Virus record (IMG/VR): IMGVR_UViG_2606217104_000013
Reading direction: 5' to 3' (one strand)
Origin: a virus
Lineage: Duplodnaviria > Heunggongvirae > Uroviricota > Caudoviricetes
DNA length: 10,212 nucleotides
Shown: one piece after another, positions 414-7,926 of the stretch
Layout: each line of letters opens with the position of its first letter
How positions within the stretch are numbered: position 1 is the first letter of the stretch
Notes under the pieces: generated by a model
What the model was told of the DNA's origin: nothing
Databases searched by the model: none
What the model saw: the letters and a program-made list of their open reading frames with translations, nothing else
Translations under genes and position numbers: made by a program

Positions 414-772
414 ACATCCCGGTTTCTTCCACCATCGCACCGGAAAAGCGACTATGAGGGTAACCCTGCGTCTGTCAGCACAGTAAAACCCGGTGTGCAT
501 CGTTTTTGATTATTCCCGCACACTCACGCAGAAGGAATTCCCCGTCGGGCTACGGTCATGGTTAATGCGGGAATACGGCGACGATACAGCGCAGCTAAAA
601 GGGTAATGGACAGATAGAGCGGTTTATTTCATTCCACAGGATTCTGAGTGCCCCCCTCCTCCAATAGGCTGAGCATCCACCTATATAGTTTTAATTTTCA
701 TCAATCCATTTAACTATCGTTTAATTGTTGTCACATAGGATTCTGCCGTTTTTAACAATGCAGGATAATAAG

Positions 773-1066
773 ATGAAAAAAATGTTGTTTTCTGCCGCTC
801 TGGCAATGCTTATTACAGGATGTGCTCAACAGACGTTTACTGTTGGAAACAAACCGACAGCAGTAACACCAAAGGAAACCATCACCCATCACTTCTTCGT
901 TTCGGGAATTGGACAGGAGAAAACTGTTGATGCAGCCAAAATTTGTGGCGGCGCAGAAAATGTTGTTAAAACAGAAACCCAGCAAACATTCGTAAATGGA
1001 TTGCTCGGTTTTATTACTTTAGGCATTTATACTCCGCTGGAAGCGCGTGTGTATTGCTCACAATAA
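773..1066 (+). CDS. bor: Bor outer-membrane lipoprotein (serum-resistance moron)
   Basis: 97 aa from ATG 773 (AGGA 7 nt upstream); lipoprotein signal MKKMLFSAALAMLITGC with lipobox LITGC; sequence essentially lambda Bor. The ORF-track start at 725 is an upstream alternative start codon, not used here. Confidence 0.9.
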   Translation: MKKMLFSAALAMLITGCAQQTFTVGNKPTAVTPKETITHHFFVSGIGQEKTVDAAKICGGAENVVKTETQQTFVNGLLGFITLGIYTPLEARVYCSQ

Positions 1067-2856: not shown

Positions 2857-3939
2857 ATGAAAAAATTAACAGTGGCAATTTCTGCTGTAGCTGCATCAGT
2901 ACTGATGGCGATGTCTGCTCAGGCAGCTGAAATTTATAATAAAGACAGTAACAAGCTGGATCTGTACGGGAAAGTTAATGCTAAGCACTACTTCTCCTCT
3001 AATGATGCAGATGATGGTGATACTACTTATGCCCGTCTTGGCTTCAAAGGTGAAACCCAAATCAACGATCAACTGACTGGTTTCGGTCAGTGGGAATATG
3101 AATTCAAAGGCAACCGCGCTGAATCTCAAGGTTCCTCCAAAGATAAAACCCGTCTTGCCTTCGCTGGCCTGAAATTCGGTGACTACGGCTCCATCGATTA
3201 TGGCCGTAACTACGGTGTAGCATACGATATTGGTGCATGGACCGACGTTCTGCCAGAATTCGGTGGCGATACCTGGACCCAAACAGATGTATTCATGACT
3301 GGTCGCACCACAGGTGTTGCAACTTATCGTAACAATGACTTCTTTGGTCTGGTTGATGGTCTGAACTTTGCTGCTCAGTATCAGGGTAAAAATGACCGTA
3401 CTGACGTAACTCAAGCTAATGGTGATGGTTTCGGTTTCTCCACTACTTATGAGTATGAAGGTTTCGGCGTAGGTGCAACCTATGCTAAATCTGACCGCAC
3501 TAATAATCAGGTTATCTACGGTAACAACAGCCTGAATGCATCTGGTCAAAATGCTGAAGTATGGGCAGCTGGTCTGAAATATGATGCGAACAACATCTAT
3601 CTGGCTACTACCTATTCTGAAACCCAAAACATGACTGTTTTTGGTAAAAACCATATTGCCAACAAAGCACAAAACTTCGAAGTAGTTGCACAATATCAGT
3701 TCGACTTCGGTCTGCGTCCGTCCGTTGCTTATCTGCAATCTAAAGGGAAAGACTTGGGTGCTTGGGGTGATCAGGACCTGGTTGAATATATTGATGTAGG
3801 TGCAACCTATTACTTCAACAAAAATATGTCCACTTTTGTTGACTACAAAATCAACCTGATTGATAAGAGCGATTTCACGAAAGCATCTGGCGTTGCTACC
3901 GATGATATCGTTGCTGTAGGTATGGTTTACCAGTTCTAA
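2857..3939 (+). CDS. nmpC: General diffusion porin, OmpC/OmpF/PhoE family (prophage-borne Lc/NmpC-type moron)
   Basis: 360 aa; signal peptide [23 protein letters not shown] then AEIYNKD; many Gly/Tyr/Asp/Asn beta-strand repeats; C-terminal VYQF aromatic beta-barrel signature. Sits antisense between Q and S as in DLP12 and PA-2. Symbol given by family and context, not by search. Confidence 0.85.
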
Positions 3940-3954
3940 TTTGATTACTAAAAG

Positions 3955-3987
3955 ATATGTTGGGGAGGCTTTGCCTCCCCAACATAT
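3955..3987 (-). terminator. Strong 15-bp GC-rich hairpin; candidate late terminator tR' on the minus strand
   Basis: atatgttggggaggc-ttt-gcctccccaacatat; on the minus strand it is followed by AUAUCUUUUAG, and it lies about 170 nt downstream of the Q stop, the expected tR' distance. Two more hairpins follow at 3988-4009 and 4013-4036. Confidence 0.35.
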
Positions 3988-4075
3988 AAGTGGCTCCCTC
4001 AAGCCACTTCCTTTAGAAGCACAACCTTGCTTCTAACTATATAAACCTTCTGTTATATATTACCCTTTATTTTTG

Positions 4076-4100
4076 GGGGCGTTTCAACGCCCCATTTTTA
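4076..4100 (+). terminator. Rho-independent terminator on the plus strand downstream of the porin gene
   Basis: GGGGCG-tttcaa-CGCCCC followed by ATTTTTAATAATTTTTA; T-tract only in the plus direction. It would stop porin transcription from running antisense into Q. Confidence 0.6.
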
Positions 4101-4126
4101 ATAATTTTTAGTAAACAATTGGCATA

Positions 4127-4510
4127 TTAATTAGAGTTATTAACAACGATATCCATCTCTAACCGGATATCTAATGCCATTAACATCCCTTCAATTATGC
4201 CCTCAGCCTTCTGTAACCTTTTCCCGATATAACCATCAGAGCAGCAATGCTTACCTGCCAGTGACATGAATGTCATACCGACTACATAATAATCTACTAA
4301 TAAATCGTGCAAATCGCTGTTGTTCTTTTTCAGACGGGCCATGCACCCGCAAATGATCATCGCGTCATCGTCACAACATTGCGGGCGAGATTTTACTTTT
4401 GAAGTAATTAATCCCTTAAAACCGGCGGCAATGGACGACCAGGTCACATCTTCATGATTATTAGCCGCCCACGCTCCCCAACGCTCAAGAACCATCTGAA
4501 TATCACGCAT
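4127..4510 (-). CDS. Q: Late-gene antiterminator Q (small DLP12 QuuD / phage-21-type)
   Basis: 127 aa from ATG 4510 ([24 protein letters not shown]...); Cys-rich core ([16 protein letters not shown] ... KHCCSDGY) typical of small Q antiterminators; sits immediately upstream of the lysis cassette. The ORF-track start at 4525 is a TTG. Confidence 0.8.
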
Positions 4511-4595
4511 CAACTTACTCCACAAAAATCAGACCAGAACGCCAATTACAAGCAAAAATCAACGAAACAGTATTAGTTGATTGTTATCTCTGACT

Positions 4596-4718
4596 TCATA
4601 CTCCTGCTCCTGTCAGGGTTTTGGCGTAATTCTTCAGTATTCGGTAATCGGTCAAAACAGAACCGGGGAAACGATATAAGCGCAGACGCCCCCAGCGGTG
4701 GCGAAGACGTTCTGCCAT
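4596..4718 (-). CDS. Small basic ORF (40 aa) between rusA and Q, in the YlcG position
   Basis: ATG at 4718, 14 nt after the rusA stop; MAERLRHRWGRLRLYRFPGSVLTDYRILKNYAKTLTGAGV; no strong SD, so expression would rely on coupling. Not in the ORF track (under 60 aa). Confidence 0.3.
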   Translation of the reverse strand: MAERLRHRWGRLRLYRFPGSVLTDYRILKNYAKTLTGAGV

Positions 4719-4732
4719 ATAAAACTCAAACA

Positions 4733-5095
4733 TCATTCATTCCCCATTTCGGTGATGGTCAGTTCCAGCCTCCCACCTTTGGTAACAGGCATCTTCACAA
4801 CGCGGTAATCAACGACCTGAGCATCATCCAGCCAGAAACCTGCTTTAGTGAGTGCGTCAAAAGCGGCTTTTTGCAGATTATCCAGGTCACGGCGACGGCG
4901 ATCCGGCATGTGGCACTCAATGCGGATTTTCACAGGCATAGCCAAGCCGATATCCAGCATTGCGTTTTTAATGATTCGGGCGACGTTATCGCGGTATGCC
5001 TGCCCCTCTGCGCTGACGTGCGTGCGCCCGCGATTATGGCGGTAATAGCGATTATTGCTCGGAGGCCAGGGTAATGTGATGCTGTAGGTATTCAC
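4733..5095 (-). CDS. rusA: RusA Holliday-junction resolvase
   Basis: 120 aa from GTG at 5095 ([37 protein letters not shown]...), matching the RusA family over its full length; the GTG start overlaps the ybcO stop (GTGA). The ORF-track N-terminal extension to 5158 is not part of the protein. Confidence 0.9.
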
Positions 5096-6035: not shown

Positions 6036-6128
6036 AAAATCGCAGGTGCATTTCTGCATCTGTGACGGGAGAAGATAGTTTAGATTGTATGTGCGCATAA
6101 ACGTCCCCGTTTAGCGCAGAAGTCACCG
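6036..6128. repeat. Direct repeat copy 1 (~93 bp) with internal imperfect palindrome TGCGCATAAACG-TCCC-CGTTTAGCGCA
   Basis: 93 bp matching 8358-8450 at a constant offset of 2322 bp with 5 mismatches; palindrome at 6092-6118; followed by an 11-bp-stem hairpin at 6121-6151 (agtcaccggag / ctccggtgact). Confidence 0.85.
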
Positions 6129-6221
6129 GAGGAGTTCAAACTCCGGTGACTTAATTATGACAAGTTGATTATTGAAAATCAAAAGTCATTTAAACAATAA
6201 TGATACCCAGCAAGAGATTTC

Positions 6222-6623
6222 TTATTTTAACTCATAGATCAGACAGTCAACGATTTCTAAACCATTTACCATAGAATTAGAAACGCGAACTTTACCATCG
6301 TTGACTCTAGCAAATCCTTTTAACATTTTATAAACAAAAGCTGAATCCCCCTTAGCCTCAATTGCTTCTAATGGTATCGGCTTATACTTTTTTGATATGC
6401 TATTTCTATTTATCTCACTGATTTTTCTATATATTTCTGCCGGCCCACGTTCTGAGAAGTCACTGATAACTAAAATATATCTCCAAGATAGATCTGGGTA
6501 ATAAAACCACATTGCAGCATCAATAGTTAAATTCTGTAACTTGAGTTTTTTTAACAAAAATTGACCTGAGAATTCCATATCTTTTGTCAACTCTCTGCCG
6601 ATTACCAGTGTGCTTTTACCCAT
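6222..6623 (-). CDS. Hypothetical 133 aa protein, second gene of the AT-rich two-gene operon (possible partner/antitoxin-like component)
   Basis: ATG at 6623 with GGAG 8 nt upstream; start lies 22 nt inside the 3' end of the upstream gene; roughly 35% GC against about 50-55% in flanking phage genes; no family recognised. Confidence 0.6.
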   Translation of the reverse strand: MGKSTLVIGRELTKDMEFSGQFLLKKLKLQNLTIDAAMWFYYPDLSWRYILVISDFSERGPAEIYRKISEINRNSISKKYKPIPLEAIEAKGDSAFVYKMLKGFARVNDGKVRVSNSMVNGLEIVDCLIYELK

Positions 6624-7018
6624 TTCAAAACTCCAGAATTTTGGTCACCTACAGCATCAAACAATTGTTCGGCCATAGCTTTACTTATGTTATTGTCGTA
6701 TCTAAATTGCTCGCTCCAGTCTTTAACGACCGACCAGTTAATCTCCAACGAAACATCATTTTTTGCGTCAGCAATCAAAATTTGATGTAAGTTGGCAATT
6801 TTGAGAAGTTGCGACAAATCATGAGTATATGAATCATTTACGACTTTTTTGTTTGGAAACTCATGTTGTAAAAATGACTTGGCAATACAGGCCTTCAATG
6901 CACATTCAACTGCATACCCACAAAGATAATATGCACCATGAAAAAAGCCATGATCAAGCAAGCATTTGGCCTCATTAAGCCTAGTGTCAGATAATGCTTC
7001 AAGGTCGTTTTTATTCAT
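6602..7018 (-). CDS. HEPN-like domain protein (138 aa), first gene of the AT-rich two-gene operon
   Basis: ATG at 7018; helical protein with HEPN-like signatures: YAVECALKACIA (cf. QAxEKxLKAxL), THDLSQL, and a C-terminal FRYD motif. The canonical Rx4-6H arginine is replaced (VNDSYTHD), so the assignment is tentative. Confidence 0.55.
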   Translation of the reverse strand: MNKNDLEALSDTRLNEAKCLLDHGFFHGAYYLCGYAVECALKACIAKSFLQHEFPNKKVVNDSYTHDLSQLLKIANLHQILIADAKNDVSLEINWSVVKDWSEQFRYDNNISKAMAEQLFDAVGDQNSGVLKWVKAHW

Positions 7019-7021
7019 ACA

Positions 7022-7081
7022 ATTATAACTTGAATTATCCTAATTTTTATGATTATACCCTTATCAGGTATGATGTAGGAA
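7022..7081 (-). promoter_or_regulatory. Candidate sigma70 promoter(s) for the AT-rich operon
   Basis: Minus strand reads TTCCTA-18 nt-TATAAT (plus 7081-7076 and 7057-7052). A second TATAAT (plus 7027-7022) ends 3 nt before the ATG, so the mRNA may be leaderless or short-leadered; no SD precedes the ATG. Confidence 0.3.
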
Positions 7082-7317
7082 CTGAAAACAATATTGGATA
7101 TCATTTTCGGTATTTCTCTGCAAATTCCAGCCCACAGGATCTCGGTGTACAATCTGTCGCTGATCGCGCAAATTTAGGGTCAATCACTTCATTTTTTGCA
7201 TCAAACCCTCACTAACATCGAACGATTATAGTACAAGTAGTGTTCTTGACTTCTCATTAAACCGTCAGCATTCAATTAATTACAAAATACTAGCGGCATT
7301 TCTCTCCCGCAACTTTA

Positions 7318-7926
7318 TTACAGCCGTTCAGAACGTAAATGCGTCAATACTCGACTCCACTTATCATCCTGCCACGGCCGGAATTTTACATGTGCCGTTT
7401 CTCTGGCAAGGATTGCCTGTGCCTTATTGAGTATCCGGGGATATTCTTGTTCGATTGAAGTGAAGCGACCGGCTTCGCGGTGTTCTGCTACCTGAAGAAG
7501 CGGAGTGACGTTTTGGCAAGCGGTTAACATTGTGTCACTTGCCCGCCATAACCAAGCAAGTGTGCAAAGTTCGTTATCAGTGAATTGTTTTGTGATTGGG
7601 GATTGTTGAATTTCTCGATCGAGAATATCCAGCACCCAGCGGCGGAATTCTTTGGCCACAGGAGTGCGGGCGAACATGGCGATCAGATGGGCGCCACGGA
7701 GGGAGAAAATGCGAGTCTTCTTACGATAATTTCCTGAGGTCGTTGATTCGACGACCTGAGACATTCCGTCAGTAAACTCATCAATATTTTTGTTGTAGAT
7801 GTCGGTTACTGCTTTGGTGCTGGCATATTTTAATGCTGCCGCCAATTCTTTGCTGGTAAACCAGATCTGGTTGTTGTGATTTATAGGAGTGAATTTTACA
7901 TCGCGGAATGCGAGCTGAGTGACCAT
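7318..7926 (-). CDS. Bro-N domain protein (Roi / antirepressor-like)
   Basis: Bro-N-like N-terminal domain (LAFRDVKFTPINHNNQIWFTSKELAAALKY ... RIFSLRGAHLIAMFARTPVAKEFRRWVLDIL). Start is uncertain: ATG 7926 (202 aa) is preferred; in-frame ATG 8061 (247 aa) is possible. The ORF-track start at 8163 lies upstream of an intrinsic terminator and is unlikely. Confidence 0.5.
   Translation of the reverse strand: MVTQLAFRDVKFTPINHNNQIWFTSKELAAALKYASTKAVTDIYNKNIDEFTDGMSQVVESTTSGNYRKKTRIFSLRGAHLIAMFARTPVAKEFRRWVLDILDREIQQSPITKQFTDNELCTLAWLWRASDTMLTACQNVTPLLQVAEHREAGRFTSIEQEYPRILNKAQAILARETAHVKFRPWQDDKWSRVLTHLRSERL

Follow-up and report, generated by a model that had tools for sequence, protein, structure and literature searches.

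We propose, with moderate confidence, that a pair of overlapping genes in the window (the whole 10,212-nucleotide stretch of viral DNA that was analyzed) makes up a self-sufficient module of the toxin–antitoxin or abortive-infection type, which spreads horizontally and which a prophage carries here as cargo. The first gene (gene A) encodes a HEPN-fold protein, and the second (gene B) encodes a protein that accompanies it in bacteria of many phyla. The features under consideration are the following:

6222-6623, minus strand: gene B, an alpha/beta protein of 133 aa from an unnamed family, the obligate partner of gene A and its proposed neutralizer or sensor
6602-7018, minus strand: gene A, a 138-aa HEPN-domain protein of the HEPN-T / AF0298-like clade, the proposed RNase toxin/effector
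6602-6634, minus strand: the dual-coding junction, a translational-coupling element conserved across phyla (Chloroflexi to E. coli)
7019-7317, minus strand: an AT-rich noncoding leader (GC 0.358), a possible promoter region

Both genes are real, far beyond what chance would produce, with homologues that number in the hundreds and invariably lie next to each other. The two overlapping minus-strand reading frames of 138 and 133 aa described in a first-pass annotation of this DNA are present, sharing 22 nt at 6602-6623, and RefSeq carries the same coding sequences as WP_001038620.1 (“HEPN domain-containing protein”) and WP_000520500.1 (“hypothetical protein”). The peptides cited there, YAVECALKACIA, THDLSQL and FRYD, all lie in the gene A translation, and the low GC content remarked upon is borne out, at 0.351 for the pair versus 0.523 for the ybcN-rusA block and 0.528 for the P gene. 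Likewise, the pair does occupy the slot between P and the nin genes, being flanked by replication gene P and an orf33-ybcN-ninE-ybcO-rusA-Q block in what is a DLP12/phage-82-like lambdoid prophage of the E. coli O26 type. An antitoxin small RNA or other known RNA in or beside the pair was considered and rejected, as an Rfam scan of 6100-7330 returned no match.

Gene A matches the Pfam HEPN-T family PF05168 over residues 12-118 (27.8 bits, cut-off 22). This is the sole Pfam family reported for it, DUF86 not being among its matches, and many of its homologues carry a precomputed PF05168 annotation. The predicted structure is an all-alpha HEPN bundle that can be superposed on solved HEPN domains, the nearest structural relatives being TT1696 and AF0298 of the nucleotidyltransferase-associated HEPN-T clade; PDB sequence searches with each of the two proteins and with the family profiles gave nothing meaningful. 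Within the gene A family R13, E38, K42, H66, N94, W95, W101, R106, Y107 and G129 are invariant. Helix 3 does not end in the canonical Rx4-6H motif, in that positions +4 to +7 from R106 are variable or gapped and never histidine, and the invariant H66 is a separate histidine upstream of R106. It had been claimed that the arginine of this motif is replaced by asparagine, and the protein was considered a divergent HEPN on that account. The claim reflects a mis-registration: the motif position is R106, as judged from its place in the predicted secondary structure rather than from a residue-level superposition, and this residue is invariant; what is absent is the motif histidine. The reasoning is thus not supported. 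A histidine placed upstream instead is the arrangement described for AF0298-like HEPN-T proteins and for AbiV (PMC3710099), and AbiV, which has this arrangement, has been reported to be an active RNase toxin (bioRxiv 10.1101/2024.05.05.592566). On the strength of its fold and conserved residues, gene A probably encodes an RNA-cutting protein, and since the canonical histidine is absent, catalysis would rest on the alternative site proposed for the HEPN-T clade.

Gene B belongs to a family of 791 clusters at 50% identity, with a predicted element order of a1-b1-b2-a2-b3-a3-b4-b5 and conserved residues G20, W39, W47, G60, Y65, R113, D126 and Y130. The earlier view that it has no fold that can be named is in line with searches of Pfam, NCBIfam and PADLOC, none of which gave a match, and the Pfam scan found no HTH, RHH or other domain. 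A Foldseek search with the predicted model reached a best E-value of 0.11 with TM below 0.36; its low-scoring matches include RimP, RbfA, BolA, uS3 and RsfS, all ribosome- or RNA-associated.

It is worth considering whether the ancestor of gene B was a minimal nucleotidyltransferase (MNT) whose catalysis has been lost, so that gene B neutralizes its partner by binding alone; the pair would then be a decayed type VII toxin–antitoxin system and not a new pairing. The clade to which the structural relatives of gene A belong is compatible with such an origin, and G60 of gene B, at the N-terminus of the helix after strand 2, might correspond to the nucleotidyltransferase G-S turn. However, nucleotidyltransferase Pfam models match none of 47 gene B family members even at E<=10, the conserved columns contain no GS...DxD motif, and hhalign comparisons of the gene B profile with HI0073 and with a 5-sequence MNT alignment give probabilities below 1%. 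No Foldseek match is significant (the MNT chain 7ae2_B has a probability of 0.16), the predicted strands of gene B start with a beta-hairpin and not with beta-alpha-beta, and the HEPN gene comes first in the gene order. Hence, we consider this origin unlikely.

The first seven codons of gene B overlap the last seven codons and the stop of gene A (22 nt), and a GGAG at 6634-6631, 7 nt before the gene B ATG (6623-6621), spans the codons for the invariant G129 of gene A and the valine that follows. An overlap of exactly 22 nt with an in-frame start is found at 67 of 76 genome loci and at 41 of 42 viral loci, and a purine-rich motif resembling a Shine–Dalgarno sequence for gene B is found at 66 of 75 non-redundant loci. 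Furthermore, GGA or GGG encodes G129 at 64 of 75 loci, whereas these two codons account for 55 of 128 cases at positions G28 and G34 (p=1.7e-9, Fisher test). This deeply conserved junction is a testable case of translational coupling that constrains the termini of two proteins together. A programmed frameshift yielding an A–B fusion was rejected as an explanation, the junction having no conserved slippery heptamer. One locus (L084) does carry a single fused reading frame, owing to a 1-nt insertion in a contig from a metagenome-assembled genome, and this may be an error.

What the first-pass annotation missed is that the pair belongs to a very widespread, phylum-spanning cassette that is mostly found outside phages. 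Scanning genomes with the gene A alignment as query places the cassette in at least 580 bacterial species from many phyla. Of 80 sampled GTDB-species loci, 77 have gene B directly after gene A and three are cut short by contig edges; in viral contigs the order holds in all 42. Viewed from the opposite side, one gene B match is preceded by the gene for a 138-aa HEPN protein, again with this overlap. All-against-all clustering of the neighboring reading frames at the 80 loci revealed no conserved third gene. The two proteins diverge together (Mantel r=0.69, a value reached in 0 of 999 permutations), and mean pairwise identity is higher for gene A (0.49) than for gene B (0.34), the usual pattern being that a toxin is better conserved than its antitoxin. 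At two loci gene A is null and gene B intact. At one other (L066) gene B is truncated and gene A apparently intact, which speaks against unconditional lethality of gene A, although it may reflect a sequencing error.

The cassette is also demonstrably mobile. Among 5426 complete E. coli genomes 190 (3.5%) carry it, exclusively in prophages and always with both genes intact, and these prophages include those of O26, O103, O111 and O157 Shiga-toxin-producing strains. Matches to 6100-7320 in phages outside E. coli are confined to the first ~86 nt (6100-6185). Klebsiella copies lie in the nin region of a prophage, as in E. coli, and an Acinetobacter copy lies at a prophage end adjoining AbiH, umuDC and an integrase, outside any early operon (a second 138-aa gene near this copy was considered as a relative of gene A and is unrelated to it). 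Together with the low GC content in three hosts and the restricted E. coli distribution, these unrelated Klebsiella and Acinetobacter prophages support the horizontal acquisition that had been suggested earlier. Elsewhere, the copy on plasmid pAJ4131 lies beside two BrnTA pairs, Chlorobiaceae copies adjoin Septu PtuAB, a Woeseiaceae copy sits within a VapBC/HicB/Fic cluster, and a Chloroflexi copy is inserted between purM and purH. Sequenced mobile elements seldom carry the module, which occurs in 1 of 50,697 phage isolates and 1 of 72,556 plasmids. Most homologues have housekeeping surroundings, chiefly in nonviral chromosomal contexts, and not defense islands. Neighbors are highly varied, with 188 Pfam families among 150 neighbors of 43 loci; as raw counts, these comprise PtuA (3) and PtuB (2), all from Chlorobiaceae loci of which at least L036 and L041 are near-identical, PIN (3), AAA_15 (3) and integrase (2), the remainder being mostly housekeeping.

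This environment bears on the idea that the system has nothing to do with conflict: gene A might be an inert HEPN domain that binds RNA or a nucleotide, A and B might together be a small complex for regulation or RNA handling that serves many bacteria, and the prophage copy might be a passenger. Such a function would suit the absence of the canonical histidine (the HEPN review allows that motif-less domains may be non-catalytic binders), the mostly housekeeping neighbors in environmental genomes, the ribosome- and RNA-associated proteins among the weak fold matches of gene B, and the one locus where gene A persists beside a truncated gene B. On the other hand, the invariant glutamate, histidine and arginine of gene A are arranged as in the proposed alternative active site, the distribution is patchy (in E. 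coli, the 3.5% of genomes given above, and there only in prophages) with no conserved context, and copies of the pair turn up repeatedly at cargo sites of prophages and plasmids, next to toxin–antitoxin and Abi genes. Patchiness, varied context and recurrence at cargo sites typify selfish or defensive cassettes rather than housekeeping factors, and we regard a non-conflict role as improbable.

The position of the pair in this prophage invites a further reading, in which the phage uses both proteins in its own lytic cycle, for counter-defense or host takeover, with expression from pR through the nin region. The pair is co-oriented with the delayed-early rightward transcription unit and lies within it, between P and Q, and no terminator was found between it and the downstream operon. 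Nor is there a convincing promoter of its own: the “dedicated promoter-like region” of the earlier annotation did not withstand a sigma-70 scan, which found no minus-strand site in 7019-7317 and, over the whole region, 3 sites versus 4.7 +/- 2.4 in shuffled sequences, that is, fewer. Two TATAAT hexamers are present, neither with a usable -35. A promoter in 7019-7317 is nonetheless possible because the 300-nt upstream region travels with the cassette; the leader is the same in E. coli EC21Z-014 despite a different upstream gene, and similarity to that strain extends ~100 nt past it, into the remnant of an antirepressor gene 3′ end. Against use in the lytic cycle stand the great majority of homologues, which are nonviral, chromosomal and spread over many phyla, the rarity of the pair among sequenced phage isolates, and the Acinetobacter copy, which lies near an integrase at a prophage end and not in an early operon. 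This reading is accordingly a still less probable one. Two last readings, that these are standard nin housekeeping genes of lambdoid phages or that the frames are spurious ones in AT-rich DNA, would be in keeping with the nin-region location and with the PHROGs entries (where both genes figure as phage families with no assigned function), but are refuted by hundreds of non-phage homologues with obligate pairing, conserved residues and confident predicted folds, and by the E. coli counts, most lambdoid prophages lacking the pair (partial or full matches to 6100-7320 occur in 2,644 E. coli records and the pair itself in 186-190 genomes).

We therefore return to a mobile toxin–antitoxin or abortive-infection module. 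The properties of the pair fit the candidate status given to it at the outset: it is small, autonomous, coupled and found in variable contexts, with occasional BrnTA, AbiH, PIN and Septu neighbors. Generic type II-like features are likewise present, namely small, co-oriented, coupled genes that always occur together and a patchy, mobile distribution. Classical type II antitoxins have a DNA-binding domain and an operator palindrome; type II-like autoregulation is not apparent here, as gene B has no DNA-binding domain and 7019-7317, upstream of gene A, contains no inverted repeat or operator-like palindrome. Further points that weigh against the proposal are the absent canonical histidine, the failure to find a convincing promoter of the pair's own (expression in the lysogen is presumptive), the mostly housekeeping surroundings of the homologues, their rarity in sequenced phage isolates and plasmids, and the locus where gene B is truncated. 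Mechanistically, a dimer of gene A would act as an RNase with a non-canonical site as described for AF0298-like HEPN proteins, formed by R106 at the motif position, H66 in the insert between helices 2 and 3, and the acidic E38 of helix 2. Gene B would be translated by ribosomes coupled to gene A, through the ribosome-binding site in the last codons of gene A and the 22-nt overlap, so that the two proteins are made together. Protein B would then bind A and keep it inactive, as a protein antitoxin and/or sensor; neutralization by AMPylation in the manner of MntA is not expected, since B lacks the catalytic residues of nucleotidyltransferases. Were B lost or titrated, for example when another phage infects or the element is lost, the RNase would be released and cell growth arrested, and the prophage could benefit through competitor exclusion or addiction.

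A more ambitious version of this proposal joins three claims: that gene B is the first of a new family of proteins, perhaps with a new fold, as the dedicated partner of a distinct HEPN-T subfamily; that A and B are an unrecognized toxin–antitoxin or abortive-infection system of many phyla with a non-canonical H66/R106/E38 site; and that the 22-nt overlap and internal ribosome-binding site hard-wire the A:B stoichiometry, with immunity or addiction encoded by the prophage in Shiga-toxin-producing E. coli as the outcome. We put this combination forward tentatively, as possible but with less than an even chance of being right in full.

HEPN RNases are among the commonest effectors of bacterial immunity and toxin–antitoxin biology. 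To our knowledge, AbiV is the sole member with demonstrated activity in the HEPN-T clade without the canonical histidine, and the known partners of that clade are nucleotidyltransferases. The cassette pairs a HEPN-T protein with a wholly unannotated family that has no entry in Pfam, NCBIfam or PADLOC. If it is indeed a toxin–antitoxin or defense system, it would supply a new neutralization partner for HEPN biology, a clean test system for the alternative HEPN active site, and an accessory function on prophages of O26, O103, O111 and O157 Shiga-toxin-producing E. coli, in which the spread of Shiga toxin phages is influenced by how stable the prophages are and how superinfection is controlled.

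It is informative to set the pair beside known systems. As had been stated, no named system matches it. The PADLOC-DB v2 scan, whose models include RnlAB, AbiV and the PD-T4, PD-T7 and PD-Lambda systems as well as PDC-M28, gave a single, weak match, of gene A to PDC-M28A (E=1.8e-7, 29.7 bits), and gene B with 47 relatives gave no consistent match and none to the PDC-M28 models; literature searches on either accession, on HEPN proteins in the nin region and on UPF0332 HEPN toxins found nothing. PDC-M28 is a candidate three-family cassette, FAM_01482>>FAM_02546>>FAM_01036, proposed from guilt-by-embedding (Payne et al. 2024 bioRxiv). Membership was rejected, because three families are needed and only gene A matches, weakly; PDC-M28 is a three-gene system, whereas here there is no conserved third gene.

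The HEPN-MNT (HepT/MntA) type VII systems, exemplified by Shewanella SO_3166/SO_3165, Aphanizomenon HEPN/MNT and Legionella HEPN-MNT, differ at several levels. Their toxin is a DUF86/HepT protein with an Rx4HxY motif whose tyrosine is AMPylated, whereas gene A is HEPN-T (PF05168), has no histidine after R106, and has Y107 immediately adjoining R106. Their partner is a nucleotidyltransferase, whose motifs and sequence similarity gene B lacks, so that neutralization of the AMPylation type is not expected; the HEPN-first order and conserved 22-nt overlap set our pair further apart. The HEPN-T proteins AF0298, TT1696 and ST0689 (UPF0332; 2hsb, 1ufb, 1wol) are related to gene A at a level below HMMER detection, the gene A family profile matching no PDB chain, and they are classed as nucleotidyltransferase-associated, whereas the gene A family always occurs with gene B.

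Other resemblances lie in organization and setting. RnlAB and LsoAB likewise have a HEPN RNase toxin gene first and a small protein antitoxin second, and they are anti-phage systems on mobile elements (PMC3710099, PMC8266594). AbiV of Lactococcus is a HEPN protein that shares the alternative histidine arrangement of gene A (PMC3710099) and is reported from experiments to be an RNase and abortive-infection toxin. Finally, HepS of the Salmonella prophage Gifsy-1 is a HEPN protein that occupies a lambdoid accessory slot near replication and antirepressor genes, much as gene A does, and it acts there as an abortive-infection defense (PMC13043305).

The two overlapping minus-strand genes upstream of the nin genes in this E. 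coli O26-type lambdoid prophage make up a genuine, conserved cassette that has so far gone undescribed: a two-gene module built on a HEPN protein, with a new partner. The ORFs reported in the first-pass annotation, of 138 aa (gene A, HEPN-T clade, PF05168) and 133 aa (gene B) with a 22-nt overlap, were found at 6602-7018(-) and 6222-6623(-), and the same CDSs are present in RefSeq (WP_001038620.1 and WP_000520500.1). When one genome was scanned for each GTDB species, at least 580 relatives were confirmed, among them members of the Acidobacteriota, Chloroflexota, Bacteroidota, Desulfobacterota, Planctomycetota, Verrucomicrobiota, Nitrospirota, Spirochaetota and several gammaproteobacterial genera. 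Gene B lies directly 3′ of gene A in 77 of the 80 loci kept, the remaining 3 ending at a contig edge, and of the 76 loci in which both ORFs are present, 67 have a start codon yielding exactly the 22-nt overlap (in the remainder the overlap is 4 or 7 nt, special cases aside). IMG/VR viral contigs with gene A show the same pattern (gene B in 42/42, the 22-nt overlap in 41/42), and a search from the gene B side recovers the same pairing. Even where the HEPN homologue is distant, in Bacteroidota, Woeseiaceae and Chloroflexi, the next gene is an unannotated one of ~130 aa with visible homology to gene B. No recurrent third gene family was found among the 80 loci. The two proteins co-diverge (Mantel r=0.69, 0/999 permutations), with a higher mean pairwise identity for A (0.49) than for B (0.34).

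The window covers the early-right, nin and lysis region (10.2 kb) of a DLP12/phage-82-like lambdoid prophage. Positions 6100-7320 match E. coli O26:H11 str. 11368 (NC_013361.1) with 100% identity, as they do many further genomes, most of them of cattle or human origin, O26, O103, O111 and O157:H7 strains among them.

Gene order of the region in minus-strand reading
Replication protein P, then a plus-strand cargo ORF
8679-9026 (+), that 115-aa ORF, WP_000152742.1 (RefSeq: hypothetical), matching Pfam VCH_CASS14 'integron cassette protein' at 71.7 bits
8090-8162 (-), isrK sRNA, Rfam gathering-level match, 64.1 bits
7978-8065 (-), C4 antisense RNA, Rfam gathering-level match, 82.5 bits
7318-7926 (-), Bro-N/P22AR-C antirepressor-like gene, directly downstream of the C4 and isrK matches
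6602-7018 (-), gene A, then 6222-6623 (-), gene B
6120-6152 and 6154-6182 (-), just 3′ of gene B, perfect 12-nt inverted repeat AAGTCACCGGAG / CTCCGGTGACTT and sigma-70-like site (TTGATT-17-CATAAT with TG): phage-82-type palindrome and putative promoter
orf33-ybcN-ninE-ybcO-rusA-ylcG-Q, then a porin gene, lysis genes and bor/iss

This order agrees with the earlier placement of the pair in the slot between P and the nin genes. The C4 and isrK matches and the antirepressor-like gene, immediately upstream of the HEPN pair, look like a P1/P7 immI-like or Gifsy isrK-type control unit, and the ORF at 8679-9026(+), which lies in AT-rich DNA (GC about 0.36-0.41) between P and that unit, is likely a second acquired cargo item. 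The phage 82 record X92588 annotates counterparts of the elements at 6120-6182 as a 'possible regulator-binding site' and a putative promoter, ahead of orf33-orf151(ybcN)-ninE-orf96-rus-Q; matches of 80-90% to part of this stretch (about 6100-6185) occur in over 2,300 E. coli records. Elsewhere in the window, between Q and the lysis genes, the opposite strand carries a prophage-borne OmpC/NmpC-type porin gene (2857-3939(+)), which is preceded by the window's AT-richest stretch (2551-2850, GC 0.27), and the bor/iss lipoprotein gene (about 770-1066(+)) is another gene of the lysogenic-conversion type.

The GC content of the pair is 0.351 and that of the 300-nt leader upstream of gene A 0.358, as against 0.523 for ybcN-rusA and 0.528 for P. 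Homologous pairs are also AT-rich relative to their surroundings in Klebsiella (0.393 vs 0.507) and Acinetobacter (0.287 vs 0.358), so that low GC belongs to the cassette itself, compatible with the horizontal acquisition proposed at first pass. The dedicated promoter-like region proposed with it was not recovered: a consensus sigma-70 scan of the leader (7019-7317) gave no minus-strand site, and the region holds fewer sites than shuffled sequences. In a different prophage background, the cassette is still accompanied by this leader.

Among clinically relevant Proteobacteria, prophages or plasmids carry the cassette as cargo. It occurs in 190 of 5426 complete E. coli genomes, always single-copy, with both genes and at least 99% identical, and all E. 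coli loci examined have it immediately 5′ of the orf33-ybcN block, also those with a different upstream gene. An unrelated prophage of Klebsiella carries it in the corresponding nin slot; the Klebsiella prophage loci L092-L094 have ParB-like (HTH_ParB) and DndB-like genes in the early region upstream of it (about 3221-5082). In Acinetobacter it is found at a prophage end, in an apparent corner for accessory or defence cargo, beside umuDC (umuDC-like genes adjoin it in loci L095 and L096), AbiH and an integrase (both in L096; L096:9884-11233, L095/L096:7883-9675), and, next to two BrnTA pairs, on a plasmid of 13.9 kb. It is rare in sequenced collections (1/50,697 phage isolates, 1/72,556 plasmids). 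In environmental genomes it has highly diverse, mainly housekeeping neighbours (188 Pfam families represented in 150 of them), with the cassette inserted between purM and purH in Chloroflexi and within a VapBC/HicB/Fic cluster in Woeseiaceae. Defence genes are only occasional among these 150 (Septu, a few PIN and AAA_15 proteins); in related Chlorobiaceae, Septu PtuA/PtuB (E down to 1e-103) lies immediately 3′ of the cassette (L036:7165-8960, L041:6860-8880).

The junction of the two genes is dual-coding, in that the same 22 nt encode the C-terminal W-x-K-x-x-W-stop of gene A and the N-terminal M-x-x-x-x-L-V of gene B, both conserved. A GGAG at 6634-6631, 7 nt 5′ of the gene B ATG (6623-6621), consists of the codon of the invariant G129 of gene A and the first base of the next codon. 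That codon is GGA or GGG in 64 of 75 non-redundant loci, compared with 55 of 128 at two other invariant gene A glycines (Fisher p=1.7e-9, indicative only, as the loci are phylogenetically related), and a purine-rich SD-like motif is correctly positioned in 66 of the 75. The junction sequence, as direct evidence, suggests that gene B is translationally coupled to gene A. Interrupted alleles are anecdotal and, all coming from metagenome-assembled genomes, possibly reflect sequencing error: gene A has a nonsense codon beside an intact B in L041:6001-6417 (Chlorobiaceae) and L031:5990-6440 (Terracidiphilus), B is truncated beside an intact A in L066:6393-6900 (Planctomycetota), and a 1-nt insertion fuses A to B in L084:6001-6777 (Bryobacterales).

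Alignments of 29 and later 76 relatives of gene A identify R13, E38, K42, F54-P55, H66, N94-W95, W101, R106-Y107 and G129 as invariant. The secondary-structure prediction places E38 and K42 in helix 2, R106 at the end of helix 3 and H66 in the stretch inserted between these two helices. According to a survey of the HEPN superfamily (PMC3710099), the AF0298-like HEPN-T and AbiV proteins retain the basic residue of Rx4-6H and lack the motif His; a second strongly conserved His in the helix-2/helix-3 insert could form an alternative active site, near which lies an acidic helix-2 residue. Gene A shows this arrangement, and the first-pass reading of NDSYTH as Nx4H, with Arg replaced by Asn, is therefore a mis-registration. 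We propose this residue equivalence from secondary-structure position and family pattern rather than from residue-level superposition.

Gene B has no match in Pfam, NCBIfam or PADLOC, nor do 47 diverse relatives, and its PHROGs entry reads 'unknown function'. A profile search of 1.84 billion representative proteins places it in a family of 791 clusters (E<=1e-3), almost all of which are stand-alone proteins about 130 aa long. With a pLDDT of 92.1 the AF2 model is confident, and its elements follow the order a1-b1-b2-a2-b3-a3-b4-b5.

We put the chances at about even that the cassette is an autonomous toxin-antitoxin or abortive-infection-type module in which A is a HEPN RNase and B its restraining partner. 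Gene A would act through the alternative H66/R106/E38 site, and gene B, made by coupled translation, would bind and restrain it as a protein; MntA-type AMPylation would require catalytic residues that are missing from gene B. Gene A, once freed, would stop growth, and the prophage might gain competitor exclusion or addiction. That gene B is a dead minimal nucleotidyltransferase (MNT), a variant of the same mechanism with another ancestry, is unlikely. The GS...DxD motif is absent from the family and hhalign against HI0073 and a small MNT alignment gave probabilities below 1%, so gene B is not an MNT family member by any sequence test, in keeping with the first-pass remark that no such motif was recognisable; a remote, degenerate nucleotidyltransferase-like origin is possible. 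Ranking lower, and doubtful, is a non-toxic RNA- or nucleotide-binding complex; that the pair serves the phage's own lytic cycle is improbable, and ordinary housekeeping genes or artefacts are refuted, with a negligible chance.

HEPN modules in prophage cargo slots are a familiar theme, and so the cassette is less surprising than first judged; what makes it worthwhile is how broad the family is, together with the unannotated partner, the candidate non-canonical active site and the conserved dual-coding junction. The literature searched makes no mention of either protein. The earlier statement that the pair matches no named system stands: PADLOC returned a weak match of gene A alone to PDC-M28, a three-gene candidate, and none for gene B. 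The HEPN toxin-antitoxin systems most alike in proposed working would be HepT/MntA, RnlAB and AbiV, and HepS of Gifsy-1 is similar by location. The cassette lies outside all four: it belongs to a different HEPN clade, has only part of the canonical motif and pairs with a new partner family, and its PADLOC match is weak.
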